Shown here: positions 1 through 64,000 of the stretch, in pieces
Position numbering within the stretch: position 1 is the stretch's first letter
Layout: every line of letters begins with the position of its first letter
The notes under the pieces: generated by a model
What the model was told of the DNA's origin: nothing
The model's input: the letters and a program-made list of their open reading frames with translations, nothing else
Databases searched by the model: none
Made by a program: the position numbers and the translations under genes
NCBI GenBank assembly: GCA_010405405.1
Contig: MU004232.1
Span: 2,549,038 to 2,613,037, forward strand
Reading direction: 5' to 3'
Length of the DNA stretch: 64,000 nucleotides
Source of the DNA: Microthyrium microscopicum
Taxonomy: Eukaryota

Positions 1-30
1 TAGAAAGTCTATTAGGTTTAATTCTTAATA
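1..30. repeat. End of an LTR of the same family as 1671-2031 and 10048-10408 (element continues upstream of the window)
   Basis: tagaaagtctattaggtttaattcttaata matches the last 30 nt of both LTRs and is followed by the same ttattactctattaattaatt flank as at 10409. Confidence 0.85.
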
Positions 31-4600: not shown

Positions 4601-7600
4601 ATAAATCTAAAATTATTATTTTAAGATATTTAAAAAGTACTCCTTTAAGAGTTAATAAGTAAGGCTAAAGTAATACTAATAGTTTTAAGTTTAGATTTAA
4701 AATTAATTCTATATTTAGTTCTAAATTTTCTTTAAGTCTTTTTTATTTAGATTATATTTATATATATATTTATAGAAACCTATTCATTCTAAAGTATTAT
4801 AATAGTATTATCTAAATACTATTTAGTTTTATCTAAATAGGCTTATTTTAATTATAAGTAAAGTAAATTATTATTATATATTTATATATACTATAAAATA
4901 ATTATACTTTTATACTTATCTTTTTTATAAAAAGAGGCTTATTTTAAGTCTTATTATAATTATTTTAATCTACCTAGCTCTTTCTTAACTAGTATAGGTT
5001 TAGTAGACGCTAAAGACTTTTTTAAATATTCCTTTAGCTTCTTAGGCTCTAAATAAGGTTTATCTAAGTTAAGTTATTCTAAATTATATTTAGTTATTCC
5101 TATTAGAGCTAATTTAGCTAAGAAGATACCCTTTTTTTTTAATTTCTCTTAATAGCGCTTTAATATAACTAAAAAAAAGTTACTAGTAGGTTCTTAGCTT
5201 ACTTTAAACGTAGAGTAGTTCTTTTATTTTACTTTATAGTAATAGGTACTATTTTTATTAACTTTATATCTAATTACGCTTTTAACCTTATAGTAGTTAG
5301 TTTCTTTAAAGTCTAAAATTTCTTAAGATAAGACTATTTATTATAGAAAGTATATATTAAATATATATTATTATAATAAGAAGATATAAAAAACGTTATA
5401 AATTAGAGCGCTCTTAAGTAAATTAATATAGTACGTATTATAATTAATAATCTTTATTACTTTAAAGGAGCCTATATACTTAATATTTAGTTTCTTTTTA
5501 GACTTAGCTATTCTAATATTCTTTATATTAAGTAGAACTTAGTTATTTACCTTTAAGGTAACGTTTTTATAGCCTTTATTATAATATTTAGCTTATAGGG
5601 TTTAAACGTTTTCTAGATAGACTTAAAAAACTCTTTAAAAGGATAGAATATATTCTACTAGTTTCTTTACGTTAAAAGTAGTATCTATTAAGTATTCTTT
5701 AAGTACTTTTAATATATATAAGTATTTACTTATATATACTATAAATAAAGTAATACTAGTTAAGCTATATATATTATTATTATATATAAACTTAGTAGAA
5801 TTAAGCTTTTTAACTTAATTATCCTACTCCTAGCTATAATAGATATATAAATAGTACTTAATTTCTTAGTTTTAATACTTTATTTACTTATCTATCTAGA
5901 GTTAGAATATAATAAATAGCTTCTATTAGATTTTTAAGTAGTAGAGAAATATATTTTAAAACTTAAAAATAAATATAGAGCCTTTATTAGATATAATTAT
6001 ATTTAGTATATTATAAAGTTATACTACCTTATATAAAAAGAGCTTAGTAAGATTATTTATATTTATATTTTTATAATAGAATATATAATAAGCTATTTTA
6101 GTTAGTTTATAGATAACTATTATAATAGAGTTATATAGCTATTCTTAGAAGATGCTTAAAGGTAAGTTAGTAATAAAATTAACTATAATATCTTTCTAAA
6201 AAGCTATTAGTACTAGTAAGAGTAAAAGGAGCCTATTTTAGCCTTATTTAATAGATATATTTTATTTATACTCTAAATAAGCTATATAGTACTCTTAAAT
6301 ATCCTTATTAATATTATTCTAAATATAATAGCGTTAAATCTTTTCTAATATCTTATATTAGCTTTTATAGCTTTCTTTTAGAAGATTATTATAGAAATAT
6401 TAAAGAACTTAGACTTTACTATTCTTTATAGTAACCTCTATTTATAGATAGGTCTATTTATCTTTTATTAGCTTAGTAAAGAAGCTATTAGATATATCTA
6501 ATATAGTAATAATATTTACTTCTTAAGAATTATTTCTTAAGTACTATAATAAAGTACTAATAGATATAACTAAGATAGTAATAAACTTAGTTAGGTCTTT
6601 ATTAGGCTTAGAAGCCTTAGATAGTTATAGTTTATTTTAGATAAGATTTAATAAGATATTTATAGTTCTTTTTTATTCTATATTACTTAAGAAGATATAG
6701 TCTAATTTCTATAAGAGTTTATCTATAAAGTTTATCTTCCTTAGATAGTACTTAATATTAAACTTAAACTTAATAAAAAAATCTACCTATTTTATATATA
6801 TAGTAAAAATATTTTAAAATATATTAAATAAATAGAAGTTTATATAATTTATTAAGACTAAGAACTTTAGAATACTATATAGGTACTTATAAAAGACTCT
6901 TATAGAGTTAATAATAGCTAAGAACTCTTATTATAAAGTTTTATAGTAACTCTTAAGTCTTAATAGCTTCTTTAAGTAAAATACTATAAGTTATTATTAG
7001 CTCTCTTAGCCTAGCTTAGTTTATTTTTAACTTAAAATACTATAAATTACTTACTTAGAAGTATCTATTTCTAGATAAGTCTTTAATATAAAATTATAGT
7101 AAATAAAGATTAGTATATATATAAAAGTAGCCTTTAGATTATTAAAAAATTAAATAGCTTTAGAAAAGAAATTAATAAAAACTAATTCTTTATTATATAG
7201 CTATTAGCCTTTTAGAGCCTACTCTAAAAGCTTCTTAGTTAAAGAGTTTAATAAAGAAATAATATAAAAAAAATTAATAATAAAATATTAATAGTAGTTT
7301 ATAAAGCTAATAAACTCTTTTATTTAATATATATTATATAGTATTAGCTAATCTATAACTATTATAATTTATTCTAGTTCTACTATAATACTATTTAAAG
7401 TTATAATATACCTAAGATATTTAGTTTAGTTTATATAGAAGCTATACTTTAATAGCTTAGCATATAACTTAAACTTAATAAGTCTTTTAAGTACCTCTTT
7501 TATATATTTAATATAATCTTTTTTATTCTTAGAAAAGATAAGAATATTATTAAAGTAGATAATATAAGTTACGTTAATAAAGCTATATAAAGCTTAGTTA

Positions 7601-10408
7601 ATATATACTTAGAAAGTAGTAAAAGTATTAGTAAGCCTAAAGAATATTACTTAGTACTTAAAAAACTTATATTTAGTTTAAAATACTATCTTTTACTTAT
7701 TATTAGTATAAATATAAATATAATAGTATACTTTATAAAAGTCTAAACTTATAAAGAGCTTAGCTCTTAATAGTTAGTTTAATAACTCTTTAATTAGTAG
7801 TAAAGTATAGTAGTTCTTAACTATAATATTATTTAAGTCTTTATAGTCTATATATAAATATAAAGTACTATCCTTTTTTTTTATAAAGATAATTAGAGCT
7901 TTAGTAAGAGATTAAGATTTATAAATAAATTTTTTCTTAAAATCTCTCTTAAGATATTTATATAAAATAACTAGTTTTATTTCTAATAGGCTATAAATAA
8001 GCTAATAAGGTATAATTATACCTAGCTTAAAGTTAATAGCTAGGTTCTATAGACTATATTCTACTAAATCTTATACTTTATCTTTACTAAAAGCCTTTAT
8101 AAACTTCTTATAGTAATATAGTAAGTTTTATAAGCTAATATAGTTTAATAACTCTATTAAATACTTAAAGAGCTAAGTAGATTTATCTTAACCTAATTAG
8201 AGTAGTTCTTTTAGAAAAATAAAGCTAATTTTACTATAGTAGTTATTCTCTAAATAAATAAAGAATAAAGTCTTAGCCTTAAAGTCTAGTAAAAGATTCT
8301 AGTTCTTAAGCTAAAGTATTTCTATAATAATTATATAGTATAGTAAATTTATAATATAAAATAATATTTTATTAGTCTTTAGAATTCTATTAAAGTTAAC
8401 TATTATTACTTTAGTAGTTACTACTTTATAAATAGCTATAAATGTACTATTTAAGTATTTAGCTAACTTTTTTAAAAGATAATATATTTCTAATTAAAGC
8501 TTCTTAGCTAAGGTATAGTTTATAATATTAAAATAGGCTCTACTATTAATTATTATACTCTATAGTATATAATCTTAGCTTACTTAATTTTAAGTAGTTT
8601 TTTATAGAATAATTTAGTATAATTTCTTTAATTAATATACCTCTTTATCTAAAATTCTTTTATTCTTTACTACCTCTAAGACTTAAGTAATAATAACTTT
8701 ATAAAAGTTACTAAAAAGGTTAAGGACTAGATTATTTATAATAAAAGTTATAAAGTCTTAGTTAGCTACTTTATAGCTTAGTCTTTTTTCTTAATTCTCT
8801 TTAGCTTTAAGTTAGAGTAGTTATAAGCTATATAGCTTACTTTAGTATAGTTTTAGTACTTATCTTTATTAAAGTTACTAAGAAATAGCTATTTAACTTT
8901 AGATATTATATTACTCTTTAGTTTATCTAGCTTTAAAGCCTTATTAAAAGAGCTTAGTCTAAACTTCTTTAACTTATCCTTTTAAGAACCTTATTAAGTC
9001 TTATCTTCTAGATTTATAAATATTAAATACTATTTAGAAAATTTACTATTTCTAGTATCTTTCTTAGAAGTAGTTAGTATCTTCTAATTACTAATAGATC
9101 TTAAGTACTTTAAAATATATTAAGATAAGGCTTTTTTAGTTATCTTAACTATATAGTCTAAGTTAAAAATTATATTATTTCTAAAGTAAGTAAATAGTCT
9201 ATTACTAAAGAATAATAGGTAAATTAATATATTATTAATTTTATACTTATAAAAGAGAGGTATAAGCTTATTAAAGTATTCTTAAGAAGTCTTTTTTCTT
9301 ATTATAATAGTTAAGAGGCTCTAAAAGGCTTTATAACGCTTCTTAATAGGTAGACTAAAAAGTTTAAGAGCCTATTATTCTATAAGAGTTTATATAGGTT
9401 TATATTAGTTTAGTTTAGTTAGCTAAGTCTAAAAATTAATATAATTATTCTAGATTAGTTATATAACCTTCTTATTAAAGTAATTATAAGCTTAAAGAAC
9501 TACTAAGTATAGGTCCTCTTTATATTTCTTTATAATAAGTATATTAGTTATATTAAAGACTTAATTTTTATACTTTTATAAACTTTTAGCTTTATATATT
9601 TATAGTTTATTATTACTATAAGCTAATTTAGAGTTATTATATTTAATATAAGCTAAAATAGCTAGGCTAGTATTATATTAACCTTATTTATTAATCTATT
9701 TAACTAAGTAAAGTTCTTTATATTTATAAGCTACTTTTATTACTTTAAGTTATTTAATCTTAAGTATATTATATATTTACTATATTTTAGCTTATAACTA
9801 TTCTAATATCTTTTTTATATTTACTACTAATTCTAAATAAACTTATTCTATATTAGTAAAGTTATTTATAGGGTTACTTAGTTTTACTAAAGTTAATATA
9901 GCTATATTTAGTATAATTAGATTTAATTTAGCTAGTTTTACTCTAGAGGTCTTACTCTTAGGTTTTATTAGTTTATTATTTATAATTAATTATAATATTT
10001 TAAAAAAAAAGCTTTATAGATACTCTATTAGTAAAAAGTAATTATAATATTAGAAATTAGAGTTATAGAGTAGGTAAGAAGATTATAAAATACTTAAATA
10101 AATTAAGTATATAAAAATAGAGATAGAAGTAATTACTAAGGAACTATAAAGGAATTCCTTAACCTCTATCTTATTACTTAAGAACCTCTAAGGTTCTTCT
10201 TTAAGCTAGAGTAGTCTATTTATAAGCTAAGGTACCTTAAAGGTACGCTTAGCTATTAATTATAATAGTTAGAAACTTATTAGTTCTCTTAACTATAGAA
10301 TATACTAAAGCTAAAGAAGTAGCTCTATTAGCTTTTAATAGCTATTAAGCTAAGGTACTTAAGCTATAATACTTATCTTAAAGAGTCTATTAAGTTTAAT
10401 TCTTAATA
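1671..10408 (-). mobile_element. Ty3/Gypsy LTR retrotransposon, heavily RIP-mutated, 8.7 kb
   Basis: 361-bp LTRs at 1671-2031 and 10048-10408 (tattag...ctaata = tgttag...ctaaca after de-RIP). TSD ttatt at 1666-1670 and 10409-10413. Minus strand gives RT IYFNNILIFS (=VYLDDILIFS, ~7531-7560), integrase de-RIP STAFQPQTDGQT (~5881-5940) and TFNVKKLVEY (~5650-5690). Confidence 0.9.
2732..4500 (+). pseudogene. RIP-inactivated extra ORF antisense to gag-pol in the 3' region of the Gypsy element
   Basis: From ata-gct (ATG-GCT before RIP) at 2732 one frame is codon-like for >400 codons. Its stops are TAA/TAG, as expected from CAA/CAG/TGG. Contains a KKKRK cluster at ~3056-3070. End coordinate approximate. 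Confidence 0.5.
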
Positions 10409-12050
10409 TTATTACTCTATTAATTAATTATAAATTATATTTATTATAAATTATATCTATTATATATTTAGTTATATTATATTTATAATTTATATCTTAG
10501 TTATTCTACTATTAGTCTTACTTTAATTATTTATATTTAGTTCTTAATATTACCTTATTATTATATTAAGATTTATCTATTTTAATTATATATTATTATA
10601 TTATTATTATACTAAAATTATTTTAGCTTATTACTTATTATTATATTCTTTATATTACTTATTCTATCTACGTTAATTTTATTTATATATATTTTAGATT
10701 TATAAACTATAAGCTAACTATATAAAGAATTTATAAAAGTCTACTTAGAGTAAAATCCTAGTCTCTTAATAAACTTTTTAGAGTTTTATAAAAATTTAAT
10801 AGCCTAATTATAAAAGGATTATATTCTTATAAATTTTTTAAAAATTTAGTATTTTATAAATAAGTATCTTAATATTAAGAAGTTATAACTATTAGCTTAA
10901 AGCTTCTTTAAAAGTAAATATACTTATACTAATTATTATAACTATAAGCTTATAAATATTATAGTAATATTTACTAATATAGTACTAAAAGCTACTATAT
11001 ATATTAAAGCTATTAAAAATAAAGATACTAAATATTTAGTAAATAAAGCTATAATTAATTATTAATATATTAAGCTAACTTATTTTATAAGTTTATATAT
11101 ATATTATATTTTTACTCTATATAATTACTCTAATTATTATTACTTTTATAATAGTAGTATAATTAAAGTAACTCTATATATTTATAGTATTTATTTATAT
11201 ATTATTTAGATTATAACTAATATATATATATAAATATTTAATAATTTAGTAATAAGTAACTTATAGTAGTTTATATTTATAAGTAAAGGCTAGAAAAAGT
11301 TTAATAAAAAACTAAATCTTTAGTTTATTAATAATAAAATAGAGATATCTCTTAATAGTTAGTTTCTATATTTTTATCCTTATTAATTCTACTTATCTTT
11401 ATTTATATATCTTTTTTCTCTACTATATACTTTATTTATTTACTTTTTCTTTTTTTTTTAATCTTATAAACCTTTTTTTATATATCTTTTTTTTAACTAT
11501 ATACTTTATTTTACTTTATTACTATAGCTAATATAACTATATAATAATTATTACTATTAACTTTACTTTCTTTTTTTATACTTCTTTTTATAAAGCTAAT
11601 ACTCTATTTACTATAAGAGAATATATATTATAAAAGGATTTTATAAATAATTATATATAAAAGACTCTTCTTTCTTTATATATAATACGCTTTTATATAT
11701 TACTATATACTAGTTACTAATTCTATAATAAGGTATTTAAAAAGCTTTAGCTAGCTTAAGAATATAGCCTAGAAAATTCTAATAAAAATAGAAAAAGTTA
11801 TTTCTAGTTAACTAATATCTATATATTTAGTAATAAAACTTATAAAAATATATAAGTAAGTTATAGTATTATTTTATTTATTTATTATCCTATTTATTTA
11901 TTATCCTATTTATTTATTTATTACTCTATTTATTTATTTATTACTCTATTTATTTATTTATTACTTTATTATTTATTACTCTATTATTTATTACTTTATT
12001 ATTTATTACTTTATTATTTATTATTTTATTATTTATTACTCTATTATTTA
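10409..12050. repeat. ~1.6 kb tandem unit A, copy 2, with 15-bp repeat tail (~11868-12060)
   Basis: Colinear with 31-1670. The tail has about 8 consecutive ttacyctattattta units. Confidence 0.9.
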
Positions 12051-15000
12051 TTACTCTATTAATTAATTATAAATTATATTTATTATAAATTATATATATA
12101 TATATAAATCTCTTTATTGTCTAGTTCGTTTAGACCCTATAGGGGGTCTGAACACGCTACTCTAATAGGCGTATGTAGACTATACTAACTATTTATAGTA
12201 GAAACCCTTAGGGGAATAAAACTATACTGTTTGCCTTAGTAGGGCGCTATAGGCGTTCTGGCGTCCCTTTATCCATTGTAGATCGTTCACCTTGCGGTTA
12301 TTAATAGACTAATCTAGAAATGCTTCTACTTTATTTAATCTCCTTTCTATCTATCTAACTCTATCTCTATCTAAACTTCTTCGTCTACTTCTTTAAACTC
12401 TACTAGAGTCGCTGGAGCTACTTTAGCCGCCTTATAGACACTAGCTAATATAGCTATGGCTATCTTTCTTCCTAACGCCGCTATAGGTGTAGTAGCGCCT
12501 AATGGGCCTATTGTTTAACGAGTAGGCATAAAGCTAAGAAACTGTTATCCTAGAGCTGTTCCTACTATGGCTAAGGCTAGAGGCCTTTTAGGGCCTTTCG
12601 TAGAAGTAGCTTTTAATATAGCGGTAGGTATTTGTTTATTCTTTAGTATTATGTTTGTATTACTACGATTCTATTAAGCTAAACTATTCTATAGGTTGAC
12701 GGTATATTTAAATAAGGTCGCCTAGAGGGTGTTTGCTACTAAAGTAATACTTTTATAGACACTATAGAATTTGTCCTAATGGTTATATTTATAACCGTAA
12801 TTTAAGTACTATTTACTTTTGCTTTTTGTTTTGTAATCCTATATATCGTGCTTACTTATATAGTGTCTATAGTAAGCTTCTACTAAATAGGAAGACTATA
12901 TATATCCCTAGGTACTATACTAGTAGTACTAAGTGCTTACTAGCGTTATTGCCTAGAGTTTATAACTATACTATACGCCTTTAATTATTAGTCCTTAGGC
13001 TATAATAGTCTCCTAGAGACCCTCTATAGGGAAATATACGATAAAGGATGATCTCTTCTTCTCTAAGATTATTATTTTATTGCTATATATCTAGCTTACC
13101 CTAGTAATAGTAAGAATATGCTAGTTGTCTTTATTTAGAGCCTTAATAAATTCTAAGTTATAATTATCTACTCCTTTATTATAATGAACCTTATTGCTAA
13201 TACTTTTAAGAGGAACGCTAGCTACTTTAATAAGATAGTCCTGCTAAAGCACCTACGCCCCTTTAATGGATAGGAACTAGGCTTAATCCTTCTATTTAGT
13301 GTCTCTAAAGATGACTTAAAGATTACTACTCTATAGAGGGCGTACGCCTATAGTACCTATAAATGTCTTTTTAAGCTCCTTAAGGACCTTTAGAGGAGTC
13401 CCTATATATTGTCCTGCCTTAGGTTATAGAATAATAGAACGACCTTTTAGTTTACTTACGTATAGTTTAGTATAGGAAGCAATTACTACCTAGGAATATA
13501 GCTTTAGAGCTAGTATAGTAGAACGACGTTAAACCGCTGCTTTAATCTTGTTAAGCTAATTAAGTATAGTTTTAAGGAAGGTAGGTTTAGGAGTAGGGTG
13601 TTTAGCCACTAGAGGCTCTTCCTCTTAGTTAAGGATAAAGTCCTTTAGCTTAATAAGCTCCTCCATAGTGTTATAAAGGTCTTATTTTGAGATGATTATT
13701 TCTAATTCTTTTTATATACCTTTTTATAATCTAGATAGGGACATCCCTACTACGTTAACCATGCTAAGCAGTTCCGAAGGGCTACTGTCGTCAAGTAAGC
13801 TCTTGTAGCTCTTGTAATCTGATTCTCGTTCTTCTATATTATGGTCGTTTAGTTGTGCTATTTTGTTTTAATCGTAACAATACTGTAGCGCGTACGGGCG
13901 TCTAGCTGAAAATTTGTAAGTATAATCCCTAAGCTTTAGCGAAGGGATTCCGATGGTTTATTTAAATTAAATCGATGAAGTAGTGCAAAACGAGCTATGT
14001 AGGAGCTAAAGAAGGTCCTATTATAAATTATATTTATTATATATCTAGTTATATTATATTTATAATTTATATTTTAGCTACTTTACTATTAGTCTTATTT
14101 TAACTATCTATATTTAGTTCTTAATATTACCTTATTATTATACTAAGATCTATCTATTTTAGTTATATATTATTATATTATTATTATATTAAGATTGCTC
14201 TAGCTTATTACTTACTATTATATTCTTTATATTACTTATTCTACTTATATTAATTTTACTTATATATATCTTAGATTTATAAACTATAAGCTAACTATAT
14301 AAAGAATTTATAAAAATCTACTTAGAGTAAAATTCTAGTCTTTTAGTAAGCTTTTTAGAGTTTTATAAGGACCTAATAGTCTAATTATAGAAGAATTATA
14401 CTCTTATAAATTTTTTAAAAATTTAGTATTTTATAGATAAATATCTTAATATTAAGAAGTTATAACTACTAGCTTAAAGCTTCTTTAAAAGTAAATATAC
14501 TTATACTAACTATTATAACTATAAGCTTATAAATACTATAGTAATATTTACTAATATAGTACTAAAAGCTACTATATATATTAAGGCTACTAGAAATAAA
14601 GGTGCTAAATATTTAGTAAATAAGGCTATAATTAATTATTAGTATACTAAGCTAACTTATTTTATAAGTTTATATATATATTATACTTTTACTTTATATA
14701 GTTATTTTAATTATTATTACTTTTATAATAATAATATAATTAGAGTAACTCTATATATCTATAGTACCTATTTATATATTATTTAGATTATAACTAATAT
14801 ATATATATAAATATTTAATAATTTAATAATAAGTAACTTATAGTAGCTTATATCTATAAGTAAAGGCTAGAAAAAGTCTAATAAAAAACTAAATCTCTAG
14901 TCTATTAATAATAAAATAGAGATATTCTTTAATAGTTAGTTTCTATATTTTTATTCTTATTAATTCTATTTACCTTTATTTATATATCTTTTTTCTCTAC

Positions 15001-15204
15001 TATATACTTTATTTATTTACTTCTTCTTTTTTTTTTAATTTTATAGACCTTTTTTTATATATCTTTTTTTTAACTATATACTTTATTTTATTTTATTACT
15101 ATAGCTAATATAACTATATAATAATTATTACTATTAACTCTACTTCTTTCTTTTATACTTCTTTTTATAAAGCTAATACTCTATCTACTATAAGGGAGTA
15201 TATA
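12051..15204. repeat. Unit A copy 3, interrupted at 12095-14018 and truncated at ~15204
   Basis: Unit start at 12051-12094 resumes at 14019. Similarity stops after ...ctataagggagtatata. Confidence 0.85.
12095..14018 (-). mobile_element. ORF1(gag)-only non-LTR retroelement, Tad/I-like, moderately RIP-mutated
   Basis: TSD tattataaattata at 12081-12094 and 14019-14032. (TA)n tail preceded by AATAAA on the minus strand (12113-12118). Single minus ORF from ~13762 to ~12300 with three de-RIP zinc knuckles (CHRCGAWGHTQSSC, CGHCAGKHDTRDC, CLNCGCKYNH). No room for EN/RT. Confidence 0.8.
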
Positions 15205-17100
15205 GATATATAATAGTCTTCTTAAACTATATAGTTTAAGTTATAATTTAGATCTTAGTTTAATTTATAGTTTAATTTTTAAAGTCTATTTATTACTTAC
15301 TACTTACTATTATATCTATAAAGAATTAGTTAGTTTTAAGTACTTAAGTTTTATAGAAGTTTACTCTCTTAATAACCTAATTAGTATTTAACGTTATTAT
15401 TACTAGTAGACTATTCCTCTACCTTATATTTAATAGTAGTAACTTTATAAAAACTAAACCTACTAAATATAGTATAATTAACTATAATATAATTAAAGCT
15501 AGTAACTAAATCTCTATTAGTAGATCTACTACTAATAGTTCTATTTATACGTAATTAAAAGCTACTTAGTAAAGTATTAGGCAATTAGCAATACTAAAAC
15601 TAATAGCTAGGATCTAAAGTAGTAGATTTAGTAAACTAAAATATAAACTTATATAATAATTTATAGTTCTAATTCTTATTTAGTAGAAAAAGCCTATAGA
15701 TAAGTAGACTAAGCTTATTATGTTTTAATTAGTAGTAATAATATAATATAAACTAATTATACTTACTAAATATTATACTACTAATTAACTTATCTAGTCT
15801 AATATTATCTCCTCCTTTTAAGAAGTCTCTCCCTCCTTAATAATTATATTCTCTAAGTCTACTATAATATAGTCCTTTTGCTCTATATAAGCTTTAAACT
15901 TACAAGCCTTTAAAAAAACTATAGCCTAAACGTTAGATAACTACTATAACTCTAAGATATTACTTATTACTTCCTCTAGACGCTTAATTACTTTATTAGC
16001 TATTATAATTAGTTTTATAAATATAATTACGTATTTAATAGATCTTTACTAAATAATAGTAATAGAGAGGCACTATTAAATATAGCTACTAGGTTAATAA
16101 TAAAATCTAAGTAATTTAGGCTAATTTTGCTATCTAGTAATACGCGTAGTAAAGGCAAAGAAGACCTAAGAGGAGAAGACAAGAAAGAAAGAAATAGAGC
16201 TTATAATAATATATTTATACTAGTATACTTACGTAAATTTAGATTATTATATATATAATTATATATTATATATATAAATTTCTTAATATTCTTAATAACT
16301 ATAACGTTACGTAAGATCTAATTAATATTAATTATACCTTCCTATCTAGTAATCTATAAGGCTATTAATATAATACGAAACTTACTTATTATTCTCTTTT
16401 TAATTAAACTTTATATATATTAAATAAAACTAGATAATATTATAATTATAACGATATAATAATTATCTATATAACTATATAATTAGTTTATTATTTATTT
16501 TTTAAACTTAAATTACTAGTTTATAGATTAAGGCCTACGTTTACTAAGCCTTATAAAATAGTCTATATAAATTATAGAGTTAAATACCTTTAATATTATT
16601 ATCTATAAAATAACTCTATTTTTTATTTTCTACTATCTATACTCTATACTCTAACTTTTATAGTCTATACTTTATAATATTTCTACTCTTATATAAGTAT
16701 CTACTACTACTCTATCTATTCTAATAAAATAATAAATATAATAACTTCCTATATAAATATATACGTACTATTTACTTAATTAGCGTATAATTATTAAATT
16801 AGCTATTACTATAAAGCTTTATTACTAACCTTCTAGTATAACTCCTATTAGTTCTTATATACTAATAGGCTATTAATATATCTTATTAAGCTTCTAGTTA
16901 AGAAGCCTTCCTTCCTAATATTAAGAAGCTACTTTTATATATAGTATGTAGACGTTATTACAAGTATTTACTAAGTAAAGATCCTTCTACTATAAGTAGA
17001 TTAGGTCCTATTAATAATAATAGTAATATACTAATATTTTATAATAATAGTAAAGATAGTAATAATAATAATAACTTTAGTATACCTATTTTTAATCCTC
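15205..17100. mobile_element. Highly degraded TE relics, possibly including LTR-retrotransposon integrase C-terminal fragments
   Basis: RIP composition. A GPF-like segment (cgtttactaagccttataaaata) lies near 16540. No boundaries recovered. Confidence 0.35.
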
Positions 17101-18108
17101 TTTTAAGTCCTATACTAGTTAATATTAGTAAAATAGTTTATCTTTTCTTATACTTCTTAATTATTATTACTAATTATATTAAAAAATTTAGTATAAATTA
17201 TAATTACTCTAAGCTTACTTAAAAATAAAGACGAAGAAATAATAAAAGATTTTAAGCATCTAAATATTACTAATATTAATCCTCTTAAAAAAGATATTAT
17301 TAAGGAGTTAGCTACTATTAACGAACTTAATAATAAATTTACTAATATAATAGCTAATATTAACAATAAAGTTAATAATACTACTTAGTCTAATATAAAG
17401 ATAGAATTACCTTAACTTAATTTTAATATACTTCCTTAAATCTAAGTTAAAAACAATATATCTAAAGAAGTATATTAGGACTTTTCTACTATACTAATTA
17501 CTTCCTTTAAACTAGCTTTTAATCTTTAGGTTAAAGAAGCTAGTTTATCTTACTATAACTACTTTAGAATCTATACTATCTTAGAAATACTTAAATACTA
17601 TAATATTCCTAAGCTTAAAGCTCTACTACTAACCTTAGATACTCTTAAAGCTTATATTAACTATTAAATTCCTATAATTTAGCTTTATAAATAAAAGATT
17701 AAACTTAATCTATAATAATTATTTACTATACACCTAAATTAGAAGAATAAGAAACGCTAAGCTCCTCTACTAAAGTTTATATACTTTATTAACCTTATTA
17801 ATATATTTACTAAAATTACTAAAAGTATAGAAATCTATATAAAGTTATATATAAGTATAGTATATTTCGTAAATAAGCTAAGTAAGCTCTAGTATAAAGA
17901 TATATAGGCCTTATTAATTTACGTAGCCTCTAAATAAGTCCTTAAGATTACTAATCTAATTCCTAAGTTTAACTATAAAGACTTATTACTACTAAAGCGT
18001 ACTATCTTCTCTAGTAATATTATAGTATATTAATATACTAAGTCTAGAGAATATAATATATATAAAGATCTAAAGAAGTATAACTATACTAACTTTATAG
18101 TTACTTTT

Positions 18109-19303
18109 TGTGATGATTCCTCTTTATAGGCTTAACAGCGGTCTTGCCCTAGAGGGGCTACCCCTGCACGGTGACGTCATAGTCACGTGCAGGTGGTCCG
18201 TGCGCGGATCTTCCTCTACTACTTCAGCGCGCCTCCGTAGCTCTAGATCTCTCTTCCCTAGCTTTGCATTCAATATACTATCTTGATCTACTACGGCTCC
18301 CGTATCTCTAGGATCCTTACATAATGCAAAGCTCTTCAAACTTCAACTCCCGTGCTTACCCCGTAGGAACCAGCCATCGGTTTGAATAGGCTCTTCAGCG
18401 CGCGAAGCGAGCGCGCAGCCATTCCAAAGCGCGTTCAACGCGCAAATTCAATAACGTGTCCGTGGACGCTCGGACCACCAAATGGCCTCTGCGTTGATCA
18501 CGCGCATGCCCCACCAACATTCGAAAACGGCTCCCCTACATTCCAAACTCCTCGATACATTAGATGTTTATTCCGTAGAGTACCGACGCTACGAACGGTC
18601 CCTGAGAGGATTTTTGGGTGGTCCCTCAGGAGACGAGAAGAACTAGTGGTTGGCAGGATCCCACCAAAATAACAGGAGCAGAAGGGATGGGAGCGTTGGC
18701 AGATTCCTAAAAAGTTCAATTTCGGTCCGAGCGGAAGATCTTCGGCAAAATACGGCAATCCACGGCACGTCCGATGGCTTCACAATATTAGAAGATCACC
18801 AAAAGGGACAAAGGTTTGGTAGTAGAATATGAGATGGATTTTTCACTAAGTCCTCGATCTGAAGATCTGGGGGCTGTCTACTACTTATACAATTTGTGCT
18901 GAGTCAGCATATCTTGATGTTGTTCAACATCTTCAAACACACAACAACAACAAAAAAGTGGTTTTTTACCTGTCTTCATGGTTCCCGCAGGTTTTCCACT
19001 CCTAGTCAATTTTCAAAGGATCTTCTTGCAAGGCAGGAGCAGGTTTCAGTTTAGTTCAGTTCAGGAGCACTGATTTGAAGGGGGGGCTCGTGTGATGATT
19101 CCTCTTCACAGGCTTGACAGCGGTCTTGCCCTGGAGGGGCTACCCCTGCACGGTGACGTCATAGTCACGTGCAGGTGGTCCGTGCGCGGATCTTCCTCTA
19201 CTACTTCAGCGCGCCTCCGTAGCTCTAGATCTCTCTTCCCTAGCTTTGTATTCAATATACTATCTTGATCTACTACAGCTCCCGTATCTCTAGGATCCTT
19301 ATA
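18109..19303 (+). mobile_element. TRIM (non-autonomous miniature LTR retrotransposon), 1195 bp, almost free of RIP
   Basis: 213-bp LTRs at 18109-18321 and 19091-19303 (TG...CA). TSD ctttt at 18104-18108 and 19304-19308. PPT gaaggggggg at 19077-19086. The 769-bp interior has no gag/pol ORF. Confidence 0.93.
18323..18333 (+). promoter_or_regulatory. Self-priming primer-binding site of the TRIM
   Basis: aatgcaaagct, 1 nt after the 5' LTR, is the exact reverse complement of agctttgcatt at 18260-18270 inside the LTR. Confidence 0.75.
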
Positions 19304-22300
19304 CTTTTAGTTAAAACTTTTACTCTATTTATAAATATAGCTATAGAAAAGATACTCTAATATTAAAAATAAAGAAGATAGTTTATGCTACCTATATCTT
19401 AATATATAATAATAAAAAGTTAAATACTTTTTAACTTTTTTCTACTTAGGACGCCTAGGTAACTACTTAAAAGAATAATATAGATAAGTTATAAAAATAG
19501 TATACTAATAAGAATAAAGCTTAATTAAAAGCTATATTAGGATAAATTTCTATACCTAAAAACATCTATAAACTACTAATTTAAAAACCTTATACGCCTA
19601 AACTTAAGAGCTACTTAAAGTACTTTATTTATAATACTAATATACTCTATATTCCTCCTAATTTTACTAAATATTATAATATTAAATTATTCTCTTATAA
19701 GAGCTTCTATCTTAATAATAACTTTAGCTCTTAAGTTTTAAGTCTACCTAATAATCTATCTATAAAAACTTTTAATATAAGCTTCCTATATATTTATTAA
19801 ATATACTATCTAAAGCATAGTCTTTAGCCTTTATTTTAATATATACTCCTTTAAGTAGAGCTAGAAATTAAATACTTTAGCTATAAGTACTTAAAAAAAA
19901 CGTTTTACTTCTCTACTATCTCTATTCTTACTATTTTACTACTATTATTTATTAACGGCTTTAGATTATATTATAATATATATTATATAATAATAAGCTT
20001 CTACTTTATAATTATAAGTCTTATAAGCTAAGAACGTATCTATATCTCTAATATTCTACTATTTACTCTTAGTCTCTATAAGAGTAAAATTAATAATATT
20101 ATTATATAAGGATTCCTCACTAAAGCATAATGGCTTTAGTATTAAGCTAGATCTTTAACAAAGATCTAGCAGCGCTAGTCCCGATCGGGGCTAGCGTCTC
20201 TAAGGATTTACTAAGTATTACCCTCTTCTTCCCTTAGCGTAAATTCTACTCTACCTCTCTCTCTCTCTTTATACGCTAGATCGTTAAATATTATCTATCC
20301 TTTGCTTAATTATATACCTATTAGATCCTTATATAATCTAGCATACTTATTAAACTAAAAAATTAACTTTAAAATCATTTATGTATTTATCCTTAGGAAT
20401 TAGCGCTCCTAGATTTTAAGACCTATACTTAAGAGATAGCTTATGCGTATTCTTACTTATAGACCCCTTAATATAGTTAGGTAGTATATCTTTACTACTT
20501 TCTAAAACACTAATTAATTATTATTATAAGGTATTTAACATAAATACCTAGATCTTATAGTAATCTAAGCTCTTAGAACTCCTCTACTTAGTCGTATAGA
20601 ACCTTCGCCCTTTCGCCTCTCTATACTATTAACCTATATTCTAATTACCCTTAATCTATTAATCTATCTATCCCTAGTAATTAAGAAATTATCTAATTAT
20701 TATTACTTATTATTACCCCTACGTAACTACCTATTAACGAAACTATAGACCCTCTTAAAGAGTTTCCTCTCTTAGCGCCTCTAGGCCTTAACGTAACTAC
20801 TTACTCTTAATTATAGTCTATATCTCCTTAACGCTAAGACGAAATAGTTCTAGGCTCTTCTTAGAGCTACTATACGTTAGTTATTAGCTACTATTAGGAT
20901 TAAGATTCTAAAGGCCTATTTATAAAGAAAGTAGTAGTAGATATATAGGACTCTATGTAAGCTACTATTTAGACTTCTTAATAAAAAAAGAGTAGGTACT
21001 AGCTATCTTATATTAATTCTAATAAAGATAATAACCTTTTATTCTCTAATCCATCTACTTATAGTTAAGTAAACTAAAAGCTAATTCTGCTACCTACTTA
21101 GCGCACGCCTAGTAGTAAACTCTTATAATTAATTAAAACTATAGCGTTTGCCACGCCCTTAGTGCTAGTCACTCTAGTAATACCTTTAGCTTTTCGTAAG
21201 AATATATAAAATACGAAAGAAGGAAAGATATTTAAAAGAATCTATCCTACTATATTAGTCTAGTTACAAGACATATAGCTTAAGAATAACGGCCATAAGA
21301 AGGTCCCTCTAGCTTTCTAAAATAACTACCTAGTAGTTAATAATGCTACATGTATTATATCCTTTTAGGTCTTCTAAGGCCCTCTCTAGATATAAGTATA
21401 CAAAGATCTAAAAGTAGTTATACTAGAAGGTCCCTTAAACTCATTACTACTATTTCGTTATAAAGAACCTAATCCTACTACTAGAGTATTTAAAGATTAC
21501 TATCTAATTTATAATACTTAAGAGCTAAAGCAAGAAGTTATATAGAAAGATCCTTAGCTCTTATTTAATTAACTTTACGCTACCTTAGCTATAAACTAAG
21601 CTATAGTAGTACGCTACTAATTTTATTATAATAAACTATAAAAGAGCAATATCTAAAATACTAAGTCTTTAGAGGAGATTTAAGATCTTACGAATAAGGT
21701 AGATAATCTAAAAGGCTCTATAGTTAACTATAAGGCAGAAGTAGATAAGCTCTTCTTAGAAGTTAAAGAACTTTAGATTAGTATAATTAATTACTACAAA
21801 CTTACCTCTAATTATTATTAACTATAGCATAATATCTAGGTGGTAGAGAACTACACTACTTCTATAGAAGTAGAGTTAGTATATTATATAAAATAACTCT
21901 AAGAATATTATAAGTAGATATAACTTTAGAATACTACTATTGCAAACCTTAATACTAAAAATAAATTCCTTACTTAACGTCTTTAAGCTATAGAGTAGTA
22001 GATATAAGATCTTTTAACCTTTATAAAACCTTATAATATACTAGCTTTTATATACCTAAGAGATAAAGAAGACGCTAAATTACTTAGTAATATACTATAT
22101 TAACTTATAGCTACTTAACCTAACTTAGTATAAACGTATTTTATATTACCTTTCTTAAGAGTAGGGTCTAACCCCTTAAACGATACTACTCTATATATTA
22201 GTTAACCTCATCGTATAGTTAAACAGTATAATAGTAAGGATAAGAGTAAATACTATTAATAGAAGGATTAAGTATTAAACGTTCTAGAAGAAGATACTTA

Positions 22301-23065
22301 GTTTTACCTAACTAATAAGAAGAAGATTTAGTTTATTTATAATAACCTAGATAATCTAGCATAGTCTTTAATATTATATTACTTAGGCTATAACTTCGTA
22401 AGCCTTTATCTTACTATTAATAATATATAGAAGGACCTAGATGCTTATAACAAAGTAATAAATAGATACAATATTATAAAGTAATAGCTCTATTTAGTAG
22501 ATACTAAGATAAAAACTATAAAAGACCTAATAGAATTCTTAGGCTACTTTTTAGAAAAGACTAAAGACGTAGACCTAGAGGATTGTAATAAAGTTACTAA
22601 ACTACGCTTGCTTCTCTTAGGATAATTTATTTGCCCTCTAATAAGATATAATATTAAAACCTACCTAGAACTCTATACGTATCTATATAACGTAGAGTAA
22701 GACCTAAACTTCCTAAAATAGAATAATAATAATAATTCTAATACTAATAACTTTAATAGTAGCGACGTTAATAATAATAACTTAACTAATAATTTAAGAA
22801 ATTAGAATAGAGGCGCTTATAATAATAATAGTTAAAATAATAATAAACGTCTACGCTACTCTAATAATATCTTTCTAGCCTTATAAGTATAAAATAGGTA
22901 CCCTAAATATAGTAAGAAAGGTTATACCTTAGAATAAAAGAATGCTCCCTATAGATAGAAGACTTACTTAATAGATAATAAAATTTAACTAAAGGTTTTA
23001 GCAATACTTACTACTATAGTAAACACTTCTTAGGTAGAGATACTTAGCGCGTATTTATATAAGCA

Positions 23066-23105
23066 TTTAAACTAAACGCTCCACCTTACTAACGCAAAGA
23101 GGAGC
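23066..23105 (+). promoter_or_regulatory. Putative -1 ribosomal frameshift site at the gag-pol junction
   Basis: Slippery heptamer TTTAAAC followed by TAA, then a gctcc...ggagc stem. Lies between the gag zinc knuckle and the protease. Confidence 0.6.
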
Positions 23106-26100
23106 TAAACCTATAAGAAGCGTATAATTAGCAAAAAAAGTAAGAATTAAGCTAGATTTAAGATAGGATTTAGAAGCTAGAAACCTAGTAGGCAAATCTA
23201 AACCTACTACTAGTAGTATACTACGTTATTTAACTATCCTTAGTAGTAATTAATCTAGGATAGCTACTACTAAACAATATTAACTATATACCTTTTATAG
23301 GGCTATAATAGATAACGGTTAGAGGCATACTAATTCTAGAAGCTAATATCTTTAAGAAGTATAACGTACTAATTAATACTAGTAGTAGCGTACTTAGAAT
23401 CGTCTATACTTACTTTATTAAACAGTATAATATACTAAAAATATAACTTAACTAACTATACTTAGTAGAGCTCATAAATAGGAAGACTATCGTTAAAATT
23501 AATAAAGCTACACTAGTTACTATATATATTAGAAGTTATATTAAATAAATATACTATTTCGTAATAGAAGTAGCTACTTATAATCTTATTCTTAGTAACC
23601 CTTAGATCTAGCTTTATAAAGTGTACTTAAGAGGAAGTAAGAAGATTATTATATTCAACTCTTATTATTACCTTTATAATTATATTCTAATACGTCGTCC
23701 TATTAAAGTTAATACTTAGGAACGATATAACTTTATTGTAAAACCTCTAGAAAATGAAGAAGTAGTAGTAGTATCTATACGTATTATAGTAATACTTACT
23801 AAGCGTAAAGGTTAGATAGTAGAAGTTCTCTATCCTAAGGACTTTACTAAGCCTAAAGATAAGAAGCTACTAGATGGCCCTCTACTAAAGAACCCTTTAA
23901 TAGAGGAAGAGAAGCCATTTAACTTCTTAGGAATATTAGACCTAATCTTCTTTATAGACAACGTAGCGATTAACCTATCTACTATCTTAGAATACGATTT
24001 TAAGAAGTAGTAAGAAAAATATAAGCATTCTTATCTTACTTATAAAGAACTTTGTAAGATAATTCTAAAGGAATTTTATTACTATTTTAAAGTCTTTAAC
24101 CTATAGAAAGTAGATAAATTACTATCTTACTACCTAGGTTTTAATTATTCTATTAATCTTATACTAGACGCTACTATACTAAAATGATATAGTACTAGCA
24201 TAAACCTAAAATAGAATATTATTATTAAATAGTATCTAGAAGGTCTATTAAGGAAAGGCTTTATACGCCTTTCTAAATTATACTTTATAGCACTAATATT
24301 ATATATATATAAACTAAGTAAAGGCATTTAAGTCTATATTAATTATTAAGGTCTTAATAAAATCTCTTATAAAAATAAGAACATACTACTACTGCTTCCT
24401 AATACTTTAGTAAAGCTATATTAAGCATAGTACTATAGCAAATTTAACATTATTATAGCTTATAAGTAGATATAGATTAAACCTAGGGATAAATATAAAA
24501 TAGCCTTCTCTATATAATATAGTCTCTATAAGTTTATTATTATACTATTTAGATTAACTAGCGCTCTTAGCACCTTTTAAATATATGTTAACTATATCTT
24601 AATAAAGTATCTTAACAACTTTACTATAGTCTATATAGATAACATCCTTATTTTTAGTAAAATATATAAGGAATATATAACTTATATATACTTAGTACTT
24701 AATAAGCTAGAGAAAGCTAGCCTATATCTTAATATCCATAAATTAGAATTTGCTACTATAAAAGTAAAATATCTAGGGTTAATTATTACTATAGAAGGTA
24801 TTAAAATAGATCTTATAAAGGTGAAATTAGTATTAGAATAGGAACGACCATTATGCGTTAAAGACGTTTAAGCTTTCCTTAGTTTTGCTAACTTTTATTG
24901 CTATTTTATACGAGGATACTTAGAGATTACTGTACCCCTTATAGCCCTAATAAAGAAAGACGTAGTTACTATATTCCTATAGGATGTTAGAGGACTAGAA
25001 GATTAGGCATTTAATAAACTAAAGAAGGTATTTACTATAGCACCTATCTTAAAGTATTTTAATTATACTAAGGAGACCTAGCTTAAGACTAATGCGTCTA
25101 ATTAAGTGTACGCTAGAGTATTATCTTAAAAAGATAATAATAGAGATCTATATCCTATAGCGTTCCTTTTAAAAAAGATGTTACTAGCGAAATATAATTA
25201 TAATATCTATAATAAAGAACTTCTTACAATTATATACGCTTTTAAAGAATAGGAACTAGAGCTATTCTCTACTAACGATCTTATTAAAGTATTCTTAGAT
25301 TATTAAAATCTATAGACGTTTATAACTACTAAGAAGCTTTTACGCTATTAAGCACGCTAGGTAGAGTTTTTATTGTAATTCTACTTTAAGATTATATATT
25401 GTCCTAGACTAGCTAATAGGAAGGCAGACGTGCTAACTTAGCATTCTTAAGACTTACCCTAGAGTAATAATAATCTACGTATCTAGTACTAGGTATGCCC
25501 TTTACTTTTCCTTTACTAGTTCGATACTATGCATATAATTAAAATAGCATGCCTACTAGTTAAATCTATTACGTTATCTCTTATATAAATTACTACTATT
25601 ATTATAAATAAGTTAGATTTTCTTATTAAAGTAGGAGAGTCGTTAGAGGACCCTATAATAGCGAACCTTAGTAATAAGGACTAGCCTAGGAATGCGCCTA
25701 AGGGTAACTTCTTAGAGTTTAATAAATCCCTAGACTTTAACGTTAATTAGTTTCTAATAGAAATAATAGAAGTAGGTAAAGATAATGCGTTACTAAATAC
25801 TATTTATTATACTAAGCAAGAAGGATTATTATACTTCCCTTTTAGTATCCTAGAACGACAAGATATTAAGCTTAGTAACTATATAATCTTAGTAGAAGGC
25901 TTAGTTCTTTACTACTAACGTATTCTAATACCTAAGGGTAAGCTTTATTATTATGCTATAATATATACCTACTATTATAAAGTTATAGGTTATAAAGGCT
26001 TAGTAACTACTTATTACTAACTCTAGTAAGATTACTAGTAGCTATATATATTATAAGATATAAAGAAGTATATCTTAAGATATAAATATATCTTTACTAA

Positions 26101-27558
26101 ACCTATCCGCTAGAAGAAGTAAGGACTTCTTTAATTATTCTCTTTACTAGAGTAAGCGTAGTTAAATATCTTAATTAACTTTACTATCTCTTTACCTTAG
26201 TGTACCTATTTAGGTATTACTTTTCGTTATATTATAGTCGTTGTAGACTAATATACTTACTAATAGCGCTTTATTTCTTTACCTAATCTCTTTATAGAGA
26301 TAATAGTTCTTACGTTTATTAATTAAGTCTAAAAGCTAACTAGATAGCTAAATACAATCCTATTAGATAGAGGGTTATAGTTTACTTTAGCGTTCTAAAA
26401 ATAATTATATAATTAAGTAGATATAGTGCTATAGCTAAGTACTATATAGTATCTATAGACTAATAAGATTATAAAGATCTTAATATTAGTACTTAAGTAA
26501 TATCTTTACGTTTTTATTAACTAGGATTAGGATAATTAGGTCTAGCTACTACCATTTATAGAATTTGCTATTAACTCTACTATTAGTATAATAATAGGCT
26601 TCGCTCCCTTTAAGATCTAATATAGCTTCCTCTCTAAATCTAGACTTAAATTAGCTTACTAAGTACTAGTACTATACTAATACTCTTCCTCTTTAGCTTA
26701 ATAAAAACAGAAAAATGCTAACAAGATATAGAAAGGCCGTAAAGATATATATAATTATCTTATAAAATAGCTAACGTAGGCATAAGCATAATAGGCTAAA
26801 TAAGCTAATAAGTACTAATATATAGCACTAAATCTTTAACTTAGAGACTAGGTATATCTAAATATTTAAAACTACTATATAATACACGCGTCTAAAACCC
26901 TTAATAGTAAAAACGTAGAGCCTTTCCGTATCCTAAAGAAGCTTAACGTTATTATATTTAAACTTAACCTACTAAAGTATATAAAGATGCATTCTATATT
27001 TTACGTTTAGCTACTATATACTATCCTAAACGATATAGAGCTTCTACGTTAATACAACTCTTTACTAGTAGTAATAGGTAAAGCGCTAGAAGAAAAAGAA
27101 TAGTAAGTTAATAAAATCCTTAATAGCTATTATAAAAAAGGCACTTATAAGAAGTTGGAATACCTTATAAAATAGATAGGCTACAATATGCTATTATAGT
27201 AACTATAGGAAGACCTTAAGAATATAGCGAACCTAATCTATAACTTCTATAAACGTAATCCTACGAAGCTTAGCCCTAACCCTAAGTAGTCGCCACCTAT
27301 TATTAGACCCAATACATCTAACTCTACTAACTATAATAGCAATAGATTACTAGACGACTAGTTAGAGTAATAGAAAAGTATTTATTTATTTATTTACATT
27401 GCGCTGCTATTAGCGCCTTATTAGCATTATAAACTAGAGTATTCTAAGGATATCTAGGTTCGTTAATACCTAGATAGTTGCCTTAGTAGGCTAAAGGATA
27501 GCAGAATAGCGAAAGAGCATAAATAGTATTTTGTTAGATATAAAGCAAATTAGATTGG

Positions 27559-27608
27559 ACTAGACTAGACTAGACTAGACTAGCCTAGCCTAGCCTAGAA
27601 TAGAATAG
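27559..27608 (+). repeat. Pentamer microsatellite (actag/cctag/aatag)n in the 3' UTR of the chromovirus
   Basis: gactagactagactagactagactagcctagcctagcctagaatagaatag. Confidence 0.85.
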
Positions 27609-28699
27609 TATAAATTAGAACGTAGCTTAGAGCGCTAGTTTTAGAGAGGGGAGTAATGTAAGGATTCCTTGCTAAAGTATAATAGCTTTAGTGTTAAGCT
27701 AGATCTTTAATAAAGATCTAGCGGCGCTAGTCCTAATCAGGGCTAGCGTCTCTAAGGATTTACTAAGCATTACTCTCTTTTTCCCTTAGCGTAGATTCTA
27801 CTCTACCTCTCTCTCTTCCTTCGTACGCTAGATCGTTGAATATTATCTACCCTTTGCTTAATTATATACCTATTAGATCCTTACATATTAACGCTATTAA
27901 AGCCTATCTAGCTATCTTAAAGTAAAGTATAGAAATTAAAGTTAAACCTAGTTAAAAGATCTTATTATATATAAGTATTTACGTCCTTATAAGTAATATA
28001 TTATAATAATATTAAAACTTAGGATTTTAGTATATAAGTAGTACTAAAGTATATTACTTTTATAATATTACTACTTAAGAACGTAAAGACTTAGGTTTTA
28101 ACGTTATTTACTAAGGCTACTATTATTATAAGCTAGAGTAAATATATAACTTTATAAAGCATCTAAAACCTACTACGTAAGAGGCTTATTTAATAGCTAT
28201 AAGGCTTACTTTACTATAATAAGTTATAATTCTATATCTTATTCTAGTACTAAACTTAATATTCTCTTAGCCTTCTAACCCTATATATTTTAAGCTTAAT
28301 AAGATTATTAATCTAGTATATTTATTATTCCTTAATAATATATTATTAGAATCTAGTAAACTAATATATAGTAAAGCCTTATAATTATTTTTATCTTCTT
28401 CTAGATAGAAGTATATCTAGAATCCTATTTATTATCTAGAAAGCTATACTCTATAAAAATATAGCTATTAGTTTATTATCTTCCTAGCTATATATTATTT
28501 ATAGCTTTATACAAAATATCTAAACTAGTTCTTCTAGTTAACTATTATCTTAGAGTTCTTAGATTTAGTTTAAGATTAGATTAATCTATTATATTTAATA
28601 AAAAATAATAAGCTAGTAAAGGCTATTCTTACTTATATCTTTTTAATACTAGCTAAATTAATTATACTCTATTTTACTAACTATATAACTATAGCTAAT

Positions 28700-59936: not shown

Positions 59937-60479
59937 ATTTGAAACTATCCAATCGTACATGCTGCCTTGCTCTGGTCCAACTGCCAACTTCAAACCGCCG
60001 CAAAGTGGGTCAAAAACCCACCTCTAGCTCTAGGATTCTAACCTGGCTTAATTTCCTTCAGCCTTGCAAGCTGCTCGCCTTTGACGAATCCTATCTACGC
60101 GATCCCAACGCGTCGTGGATACCCCTTCTACTGTCTTACTCTTCTAAAATCCACCCACTGTATTCTCTTTTCTACCAATCGAGTCCTGGCCTATTGAACT
60201 TTTCCACTACCTCAGTCTCTCGTTCATTTCCCCAGACCCTTAAGTCTCAAAACCTCTCGAGGTTGTCGCTCATTCAAAAACACTCTTTTTCACACTAACT
60301 GGATTTTGCTCTGGACTGGATCTAAACTTGTAGCTATCCAATACATTTTAAAAGGTCATTCTCTATCATTCCTTCTGGAAATCAAACTTTTACCCGTGGG
60401 CTCACTAGGTATTCTTGTTGGATCACCAATTTGTCAATATCTCAAGCTCAACGGCTCCAGGGCTCAGGATCTTCATGCC

Positions 60480-62165: not shown

Positions 62166-62684
62166 GCCAAACTATGAAAAATGGGGCTTCAGGATTTTTC
62201 TACGTTGGTTTGCATGTTGACGTGTTTGTTATGGGGCGTTTTCTGGATGCATTTATTATTAGGATACCCACGATTTGGCTGATGACTTTTCCCTTTTTTT
62301 GAAACAGCGAGGACAATCTCGTAGCATATATTTATTGTATATATCTTAACTTTTATGAGGCGCGATTTAACGGCCGCACAAAGCAACGACTGCAGAATGC
62401 AATGAAGACAATTATATACAATTAGACTTTCTAGCATGCTAACAATACTCCAGTGACTGCAGAGCCATGGGCAGTTTCAATTAGTCCAAAAACCAGTCGT
62501 TGACTTGGATGAGAACATGATAATTGCCTCAGTACGGACAAGGTTTTAGTCAAACAGCATAACTGTCTATCTTCCCTGGAGGTTCCTGGGACATAAGACC
62601 TTTAACTATTTTCCAAAATGGATAGCGAATACGGCTCACTCTTCAAACCGTCATATCGATGCGGTGATGGCCCATCGTTACAGT

Positions 62685-63788: not shown

Positions 63789-64000
63789 TTTGTCTGAATG
63801 AGAAGTTGGGGTTATCGCAGGTTCAGTGGAGGTTCTGCAGTATCCAAAGCAACATAGGTCGCGGCGCGGAAGATTTGGAGTTTGCCGATACCTCATGTTA
63901 TGAATTGCGAGGTGAAGTTGAGAGATTGAGGTAAAACGTGACCCCATGCAGTCTCACTTGAGGTAGTGAGGTGACAGTTGCAGGAGGACAGGTGCAGTAG

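Follow-up and report, generated by a model that had tools for sequence, protein, structure and literature searches.

A TRIM-sized LTR element with a predicted Tf1-type self-primer in RIP-mutated DNA of Microthyrium microscopicum

Introduction

LTR retrotransposons of the Tf1 type can start reverse transcription from their own RNA. In Tf1, the 11 bases at the start of the RNA anneal to its primer-binding site (PBS), and cleavage by RNase H falls between bases 11 and 12 (PMC7175516). The RNA is described as folding into a "pretzel" structure of three duplexes, and self-priming is presented as a common feature of the Tf1/sushi chromoviruses (bioRxiv 10.1101/2022.12.06.519325). It has been proposed for Tj1 (PMC4600332) and Tcn1 (PMC7175516), and predictions exist for the Tcn1 and TAR lineages of plants (PMC6317226), with the predicted self-primers listed in Additional files 1 and 5 of that article. 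Among elements of filamentous fungi, self-priming was predicted for MAGGY, Skippy, CfT-1, Boty, Grasshopper, and Afut1 (Lin and Levin 1997, RNA 3:952, cited in PMC6934838).

Small non-coding LTR elements of fungi have also been published as TRIMs. One of them is RLX_TRIM_Sinope of Parastagonospora nodorum (PMC8549362), and elements of Sclerotinia sclerotiorum (PMC5004834) and Cochliobolus heterostrophus (PMC4112212) have been tagged as TRIMs. Three criteria for the class were taken from bioRxiv 10.1101/010850, which credits a stricter figure of "less than 1000 bp" to Witte et al. 2001.

Here we describe a 1.2-kb LTR element and a degraded Ty3/gypsy neighbour from one stretch of DNA of 64,000 nucleotides, referred to below as the window. 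An original prediction, made from the letters of the window, had described the small element as a young, self-priming TRIM.

Results

The first 33 kb of the window have a GC content of 13-34%, and ordinary fungal genes with 44-56% GC occupy 33000-57000 and 60000-64000. Proteins encoded between 33 and 57 kb are RTA1-like, tuberin/Tsc2-like (Rap-GAP), Cse1/CAS-like, and Rad23-like, and an AT-rich island lies at 57-60 kb. A strongly RIP-mutated repeat family was seen at 1-363, 10379-10741, and 13956-14318, and also at 1671-1970 and 10048-10347. Copies of the 1-363 repeat family are 78-97% alike, and two of them are spaced 10,378 bp. Short AT-rich tandem units occur at 1459-1709 and 11841-12116. 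A block of 32-34% GC at 12100-14000, within a region of 13-20% GC, is less RIP-mutated than its surroundings. TGG and CCA are absent from both strands over 1-12258 and 13957-18193, which fits near-complete exhaustion of RIP target sites.

At 18109-19303 lies an element of LTR type, 1,195 bp long, which we refer to as the mini element. The repeat search returned direct repeats at 18109-18319 and 19091-19301 that are 97% identical. By reading, these repeats are longer, giving LTRs of 213 nt in which 206 of 213 positions are identical. The features of the element are as follows.

18104 to 18108, + strand: left TSD copy, CTTTT, read from the sequence
18109 to 18321, + strand: 5' LTR, 213 nt, TG...CA, from repeat search and reading; with four changes relative to the 3' LTR, none beyond its nt 43
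18172 to 18189, + strand: U3 motifs TGACGTCA (18172-18179) and CACGTG (18184-18189), read directly
18248 to 18259, + strand: CT-rich tract, directly 5' of the putative transcript start; the neighbour's tract is in the same place
18260 to 18270, + strand: putative self-primer AGCTTTGCATT, 62 nt before the LTR end; predicted to form nt 1-11 of the transcript, at the start of R
18322 to 19090, + strand: non-coding internal domain, 769 nt, 48% GC, RIP index 1.20 (not RIP-mutated)
18323 to 18333, + strand: primer-binding site AATGCAAAGCT, beginning 1 nt after the LTR; exact complement of 18260-18270
19077 to 19086, + strand: polypurine tract (PPT) GAAGGGGGGG, 10 purines, separated from the 3' LTR by 4 nt (CTCG) rather than abutting it
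19091 to 19303, + strand: 3' LTR, 213 nt, TG...TA; three differences from the 5' LTR, in its last 55 nt
19304 to 19308, + strand: right TSD copy, CTTTT, read from the sequence

The features by which an LTR retrotransposon is recognized, namely, terminal direct repeats, a TSD of 4-6 bp, and a PBS and a PPT beside the LTRs, were all found in the mini element. As originally predicted, a 5-bp TSD flanks it on both sides and the PPT is in place. The description of both LTRs as complete TG..CA repeats was correct for the 5' LTR only, since the 3' LTR ends in TA through C>T at 19302. The 3' LTR copy of the 11-mer (19242-19252) likewise carries a C>T change, at 19249.

The two palindromes in U3 are separated by 4 nt. 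They look like bZIP and bHLH binding motifs and may represent promoter elements. No TATA box was seen by eye upstream of the putative start at 18260. A stretch of 13 nt in the interior (18467-18479) is 92% complementary to a U3 stretch in both LTRs (18192-18204 and 19174-19186) and could pair with the 3' U3 in a transcript of the element. An Rfam search of 17000-20500 with E up to 1 gave three sub-threshold chance matches (mir-1 twice, Flavivirus_DB once) and nothing credible within the element.

The prediction that the mini element has no coding capacity was borne out. Its longest stop-free frame is 101 aa without Met, and none of the 11 internal frames had a Pfam match at the family cut-off. 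Nine of them had no match at E up to 10, and the other two had a single sub-threshold match each (E of 0.11 and 0.14; 13 and 12.6 bits versus cut-offs of 22 and 30). A phmmer search with the 101-aa frame against 1.84 billion representatives returned a single hit, to a tandem-repeat protein matched over nine short stretches, which was judged spurious. As the element is without pol, its phylogenetic placement in the chromovirus clade is impossible.

Regarding the TRIM criteria, the mini element is below the size limit of 1,500 bp, above the figure credited to Witte et al., and contains no internal retrotransposase sequence. With regard to the third criterion, copy number, further copies were looked for in several ways. 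A blastn search within the 64-kb window found none, nor any solo LTR of the element. A RIP-tolerant diagonal scan of the window revealed no relic, its best 100-nt window scoring 70 versus shuffle maxima of 70-73. A metagenome scan with a U3 20-mer, which a diverged U3 would escape, returned two loci with 21-nt matches on contigs of 59-75% GC, attributable to chance, and a viral-contig scan with a 22-mer spanning the LTR end and PBS returned no hits. A search for an uninterrupted paralogue of the insertion site gave nothing, since no other sequence in the window matches either 800-nt flank. On the minus strand, the LTR-end motif is also matched at 1249 and 11627; these sites were considered as further elements and set aside as too degraded to read.

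The PBS AATGCAAAGCT is the exact reverse complement of AGCTTTGCATT in the 5' LTR, at 11 of 11 nt, in agreement with the original prediction. The bases flanking primer and PBS are unpaired on both sides, so that the duplex is exactly 11 bp. In a chance test, which counted any exact complement of at least 11 nt starting 0-5 nt after the LTR, such a complement appeared in 7 of 20,000 LTR shuffles (P of about 3e-4) and in 1 of 3,426 mock windows, each of 20 nt and drawn from the window's genic DNA. The element had also been predicted to have no TGG-initiated tRNA PBS. Indeed, the + strand has no TGG from 18322 to 18462, the first one after the 5' LTR being at 18463, 142 nt downstream. ARAGORN found no tRNA genes in the 64-kb window.

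In the predicted RNA fold of 18260-18340, nt 1-11 are closed on the PBS around a small U5 stem. The fold energy is -19.4 kcal/mol (z of -4.57), and 0 of 200 shuffles were equally stable. Within a 106-nt context, the probabilities of the primer:PBS pairs were 0.76-1.0. For the mini element, folding predicted the central duplex of the Tf1 pretzel together with one U5 stem. The third duplex of the pretzel, formed with the sequence after the PBS, was no better than shuffles, 35.6% of 500 being equally stable. A CT-rich tract directly upstream of the 11-mer, found in both the mini element and its neighbour, is the only feature favouring a transcript start there. Taken as a prediction from sequence, self-priming of the mini element is well supported.

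A second LTR element begins 800 bp downstream of the mini element. The repeat search gave its LTR pair as 20104-20335 and 27656-27887, 91% alike, and reading yielded the following features.

20105 to 27885, + strand: RIP-degraded Ty3/gypsy element, 7.8 kb, used as comparator; a relative of the likely helper
20105 to 20333 and 27657 to 27885, + strand: LTRs, 229 nt each, by reading
20100 to 20104 and 27886 to 27890: TSD, TATTA, by reading
20272 to 20282 and 27824 to 27834, + strand: 11-mer TACGCTAGATC
20335 to 20345, + strand: PBS AATCTAGCATA
27643 to 27653, + strand: PPT

For the Pfam search, the + strand of the neighbour was translated with X at stops. Matches were obtained to RVT_1 (E of 4.9e-9), RT_RNaseH_2 (E of 9.5e-19), and RT_RNaseH (E of 8.3e-13). 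SH3_Tf2-1, a Tf2-1-like integrase SH3 domain, was matched with E of 1.2e-6 and 29 bits versus a cut-off of 30, and a chromodomain-like tail gave a weak match to Chromo (E of 0.26, 11.7 bits). The frame from the RT to this tail has 89 stops in 1,062 codons. The neighbour is a RIP-killed Ty3/gypsy element and probably a chromovirus.

The two elements agree at their LTR ends and in the layout of the priming site. The last 10 nt of the LTR, GATCCTTACA, are identical, with T and then AAT coming next in each element. At the LTR start, 11 of the first 13 nt agree, and the start motif TRTRANRATTYYT occurs four times in the window, each time at one of the four LTR starts. The distance from the 11-mer to the LTR end is exactly 62 nt in both elements. 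The 11-mers themselves differ in sequence (TACGCTAGATC in the neighbour, AGCTTTGCATT in the mini element). In the neighbour, 9 of 11 positions of the PBS are complementary to the element's own 11-mer, both mismatches being G>A transitions of RIP type, and the 11-mer site is the best RIP-tolerant match to the PBS within its LTR. An equally good match was obtained in 143 of 20,000 shuffles when it was allowed anywhere in the LTR and in 2 of 20,000 when its position was fixed at -62. That the geometry is common to both elements while the sequence differs amounts to covariation. The neighbour therefore strengthens the self-priming reading of the original prediction, with the same geometry and a different primer/PBS pair. 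The covariation check proposed with it also came out as anticipated, the differing 11-mers being kept complementary, between related families and not within one.

Outside these conserved points, the two elements have little in common. Overall LTR similarity was not significant in a RIP-aware alignment (z of 1.7 and 2.4), similarity of the leaders was only suggestive (17 of 300 shuffles as good), and similarity ahead of the PPT was absent (45 of 300 shuffles as good). This pattern indicates that the mini element is not a deletion product of the neighbour's own family. A RIP-aware alignment of the two interiors (z of 4.1) was rejected as evidence of descent, being long, poor, and not co-linear. 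We infer that the mini element is a more distant relative of the neighbour that shares its integrase-recognition ends and priming layout.

To describe the extent of RIP, we used the index (CpA+TpG)/(ApC+GpT), which gave the following values.

Two flanks of the mini element: 0.05
Degraded gypsy element next to it: 0.21
Mini element, internal domain: 1.20
Genic DNA: 1.32

An unmutated element of 1.2 kb thus lies inside DNA in which RIP target sites are almost exhausted. The seven differences between its LTRs are all transitions; six are CpA>TpA (or the complement, TpG>TpA), and one is CpG>CpA. The 5' LTR carries four of them, at positions 17-43, and the 3' LTR the remaining three, at positions 159-212 of its 213 nt, so that all seven lie no more than 55 nt from the outer edges (18109-18151 and 19249-19302). 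The two LTRs together contain 48 CpA/TpG target bases, 13 of which are in the edge zones, and the chance of finding six of six CpA-type changes there is P = 1.4e-4. When all C/G bases are considered, the probability that all seven changes fall in the edge zones is P = 3.3e-5. Leakage of RIP into adjoining single-copy DNA is known in Neurospora and Leptosphaeria. The edge changes look like RIP that leaked about 50-55 nt from the repeated flanks into a non-repeated insert.

Since all seven differences are of RIP type and lie at the outer edges, the LTR divergence of 3.3% is no molecular clock. Apart from RIP leakage, the LTRs are identical, and the insertion is consequently young. The description of the element as young was therefore right as far as LTR identity is concerned, but its divergence cannot be used for dating. 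The insertion is later than the bulk of RIP in the flanks and earlier than at least one RIP episode. That the interior was still clean after this episode argues mildly that no long duplicate was present at the time. A single copy would agree with this, and so would a short form able to escape RIP, an idea put forward for fungal TRIMs and MITEs in the relevant part of PMC8549362.

Discussion

We consider it rather probable that the mini element is a non-autonomous, TRIM-sized LTR retroelement from a self-priming (Tf1/sushi-type) chromovirus lineage of a RIP-proficient ascomycete. Its life cycle can be modelled on that of Tf1, as outlined in parts of PMC7175516, PMC4600332, and bioRxiv 10.1101/2022.12.06.519325. 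RNA polymerase II would start at about 18260, just past the CT-rich tract in the 5' LTR, a position suggested by complementarity alone, and the transcript would end within R of the 3' LTR. Nucleotides 1-11 of the RNA would fold back onto the PBS, and the RNase H of a helper reverse transcriptase would cut after nt 11. The released 11-mer could then prime minus-strand synthesis through U5-R, and the plus strand would be primed by the PPT. A helper integrase that recognizes the common LTR ends (TGTnAnGATTCCT...GATCCTTACA) would integrate the cDNA and duplicate 5 bp of the target. The neighbour is dead, and Gag, RT, and IN would have to be supplied in trans by an intact relative of its lineage; no intact helper came to light in the 64 kb examined. 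The present copy would have landed in already RIP-mutated DNA, and at least one weak RIP episode later would have leaked about 55 nt into both edges. Under the general reverse-transcription scheme, the 11-mer of the progeny would be copied from the 3' LTR of the parent. For progeny of this copy, the C:G pair at position 8 would become a U:G wobble, which still pairs.

A one-off deletion derivative is a serious alternative, though on balance we do not expect it. It supposes that a full-length self-priming chromovirus inserted and lost gag-pol in place, or that a single aberrant cDNA was integrated. There would then be no propagating TRIM family, and the self-priming architecture would be real but passively inherited. 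Such an origin agrees with the single copy found, with no others in the 64 kb and none in the metagenome or viral scan; however, a 64-kb window is small, and the absence of copies there says little. The 769-nt interior is about the size of a leftover 5' leader plus a 3' untranslated tail, and in the neighbour the chromodomain-like stretch ends near 27316, with the PPT starting at 27643. Yet no remnant of gag, RT, or IN is found at either deletion edge. An interior that stayed unmutated through a RIP episode is consistent with a sequence of which the nucleus then contained no long duplicate. On the other hand, a fresh copy of 7-8 kb together with its source copy would be a strong target for RIP, and the interior is clean. 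Moreover, active GC-rich TRIMs have been published for a fungus with RIP, according to part of PMC8549362.

Alternatively, the 11-nt complement could have arisen by chance or have some other role (e.g., as an RNA packaging stem), with a tRNA fragment or another primer being used. We regard this as very improbable. Internal or half-tRNA primers need no TGG, but the mini element's pair has a chance probability of about 3e-4 and is repeated independently at the same fixed position in the neighbour (2 of 20,000 shuffles). The duplex has exactly the 11 bp of Tf1, and no TGG follows the LTR for 142 nt. Half-tRNA primers were found only in Ty1/copia lineages, as opposed to the Ty3/gypsy relative here (PMC6317226, in part, for both statements on primers).

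The reading of the mini element as a non-autonomous member of a self-priming lineage can be taken one step further. It might be one copy of a currently mobile, self-priming TRIM family that is moved by a self-priming chromovirus and goes on spreading in a strongly RIP-mutating fungus because its short form escapes RIP. We hold this extension to be doubtful and offer it tentatively. If true, this would be the first TRIM with Tf1-type self-priming explicitly shown; no such case was indicated in the literature searched, which comprised parts of main texts. Should there be more copies, the family could serve as a convenient marker, and it would offer a simple system in which to test self-priming and trans-mobilisation of elements in filamentous fungi.

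Overall, the original prediction was supported for self-priming and, with the correction concerning LTR divergence, for youth, whereas its terms "family" and "TRIM" go further than the single copy found, and it rated the novelty of the element too high. Self-priming is reported as common to Tf1/sushi chromoviruses, including many fungal ones, and fungal TRIMs are published. The mini element adds no new mechanism, both being already known, and knowledge of how self-priming elements work is unchanged by it. Its value is that of a clean in-genome example in which the self-primer/PBS rule was kept through sequence change, with different 11-mers in identical geometry. It is also an example of a short non-coding retroelement that is unmutated within DNA driven by RIP to 20% GC.

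The closest described systems, all from fission yeasts, are Tf1 and Tf2 (Schizosaccharomyces pombe) and Tj1, Tosmo1-3, and Tcry1 (other species), which resemble the mini element in having no tRNA-type PBS. Like the Tf1/sushi group, the mini element has an 11-nt stretch in the 5' LTR that is complementary to a PBS just past the LTR, an LTR that ends in CA, and a U5 stem inside the primer:PBS loop. In contrast to this group, with which it was compared by description, it is without gag and pol and is only 1.2 kb long. It also differs from the Tf1 pretzel in that the third duplex is unsupported, and inspection by eye revealed no TATA box. MAGGY, Skippy, CfT-1, Boty, Grasshopper, and Afut1 share with it a filamentous-ascomycete host. 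The neighbouring relic, with its gypsy-type RT, RNase H, Tf2-like SH3 domain, and the same primer/PBS layout, adds to the likeness to fungal chromoviruses. Chromoviruses of the MAGGY type are autonomous and 5-8 kb long, whereas the mini element is non-autonomous.

TRIMs of P. nodorum average under 400 bp, according to part of PMC8549362, compared with 1,195 bp for the mini element. The priming mechanism of fungal TRIMs, which for the mini element is predicted, is unstated in the parts of PMC8549362, PMC5004834, and PMC4112212 that deal with them. As in fungal TRIMs, we see a small, non-coding LTR element that is GC-rich amid large RIP-degraded elements, in a fungus with RIP.

In plant TRIMs, the PBS is of the tRNA-Met type, whereas that of the mini element is self-complementary. 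In other respects, the mini element matches the description of plant TRIMs (Katydid; 289 subfamilies) in part of bioRxiv 10.1101/010850, being under 1,500 bp, with LTRs of about 200 bp, no retrotransposase, and a TSD.
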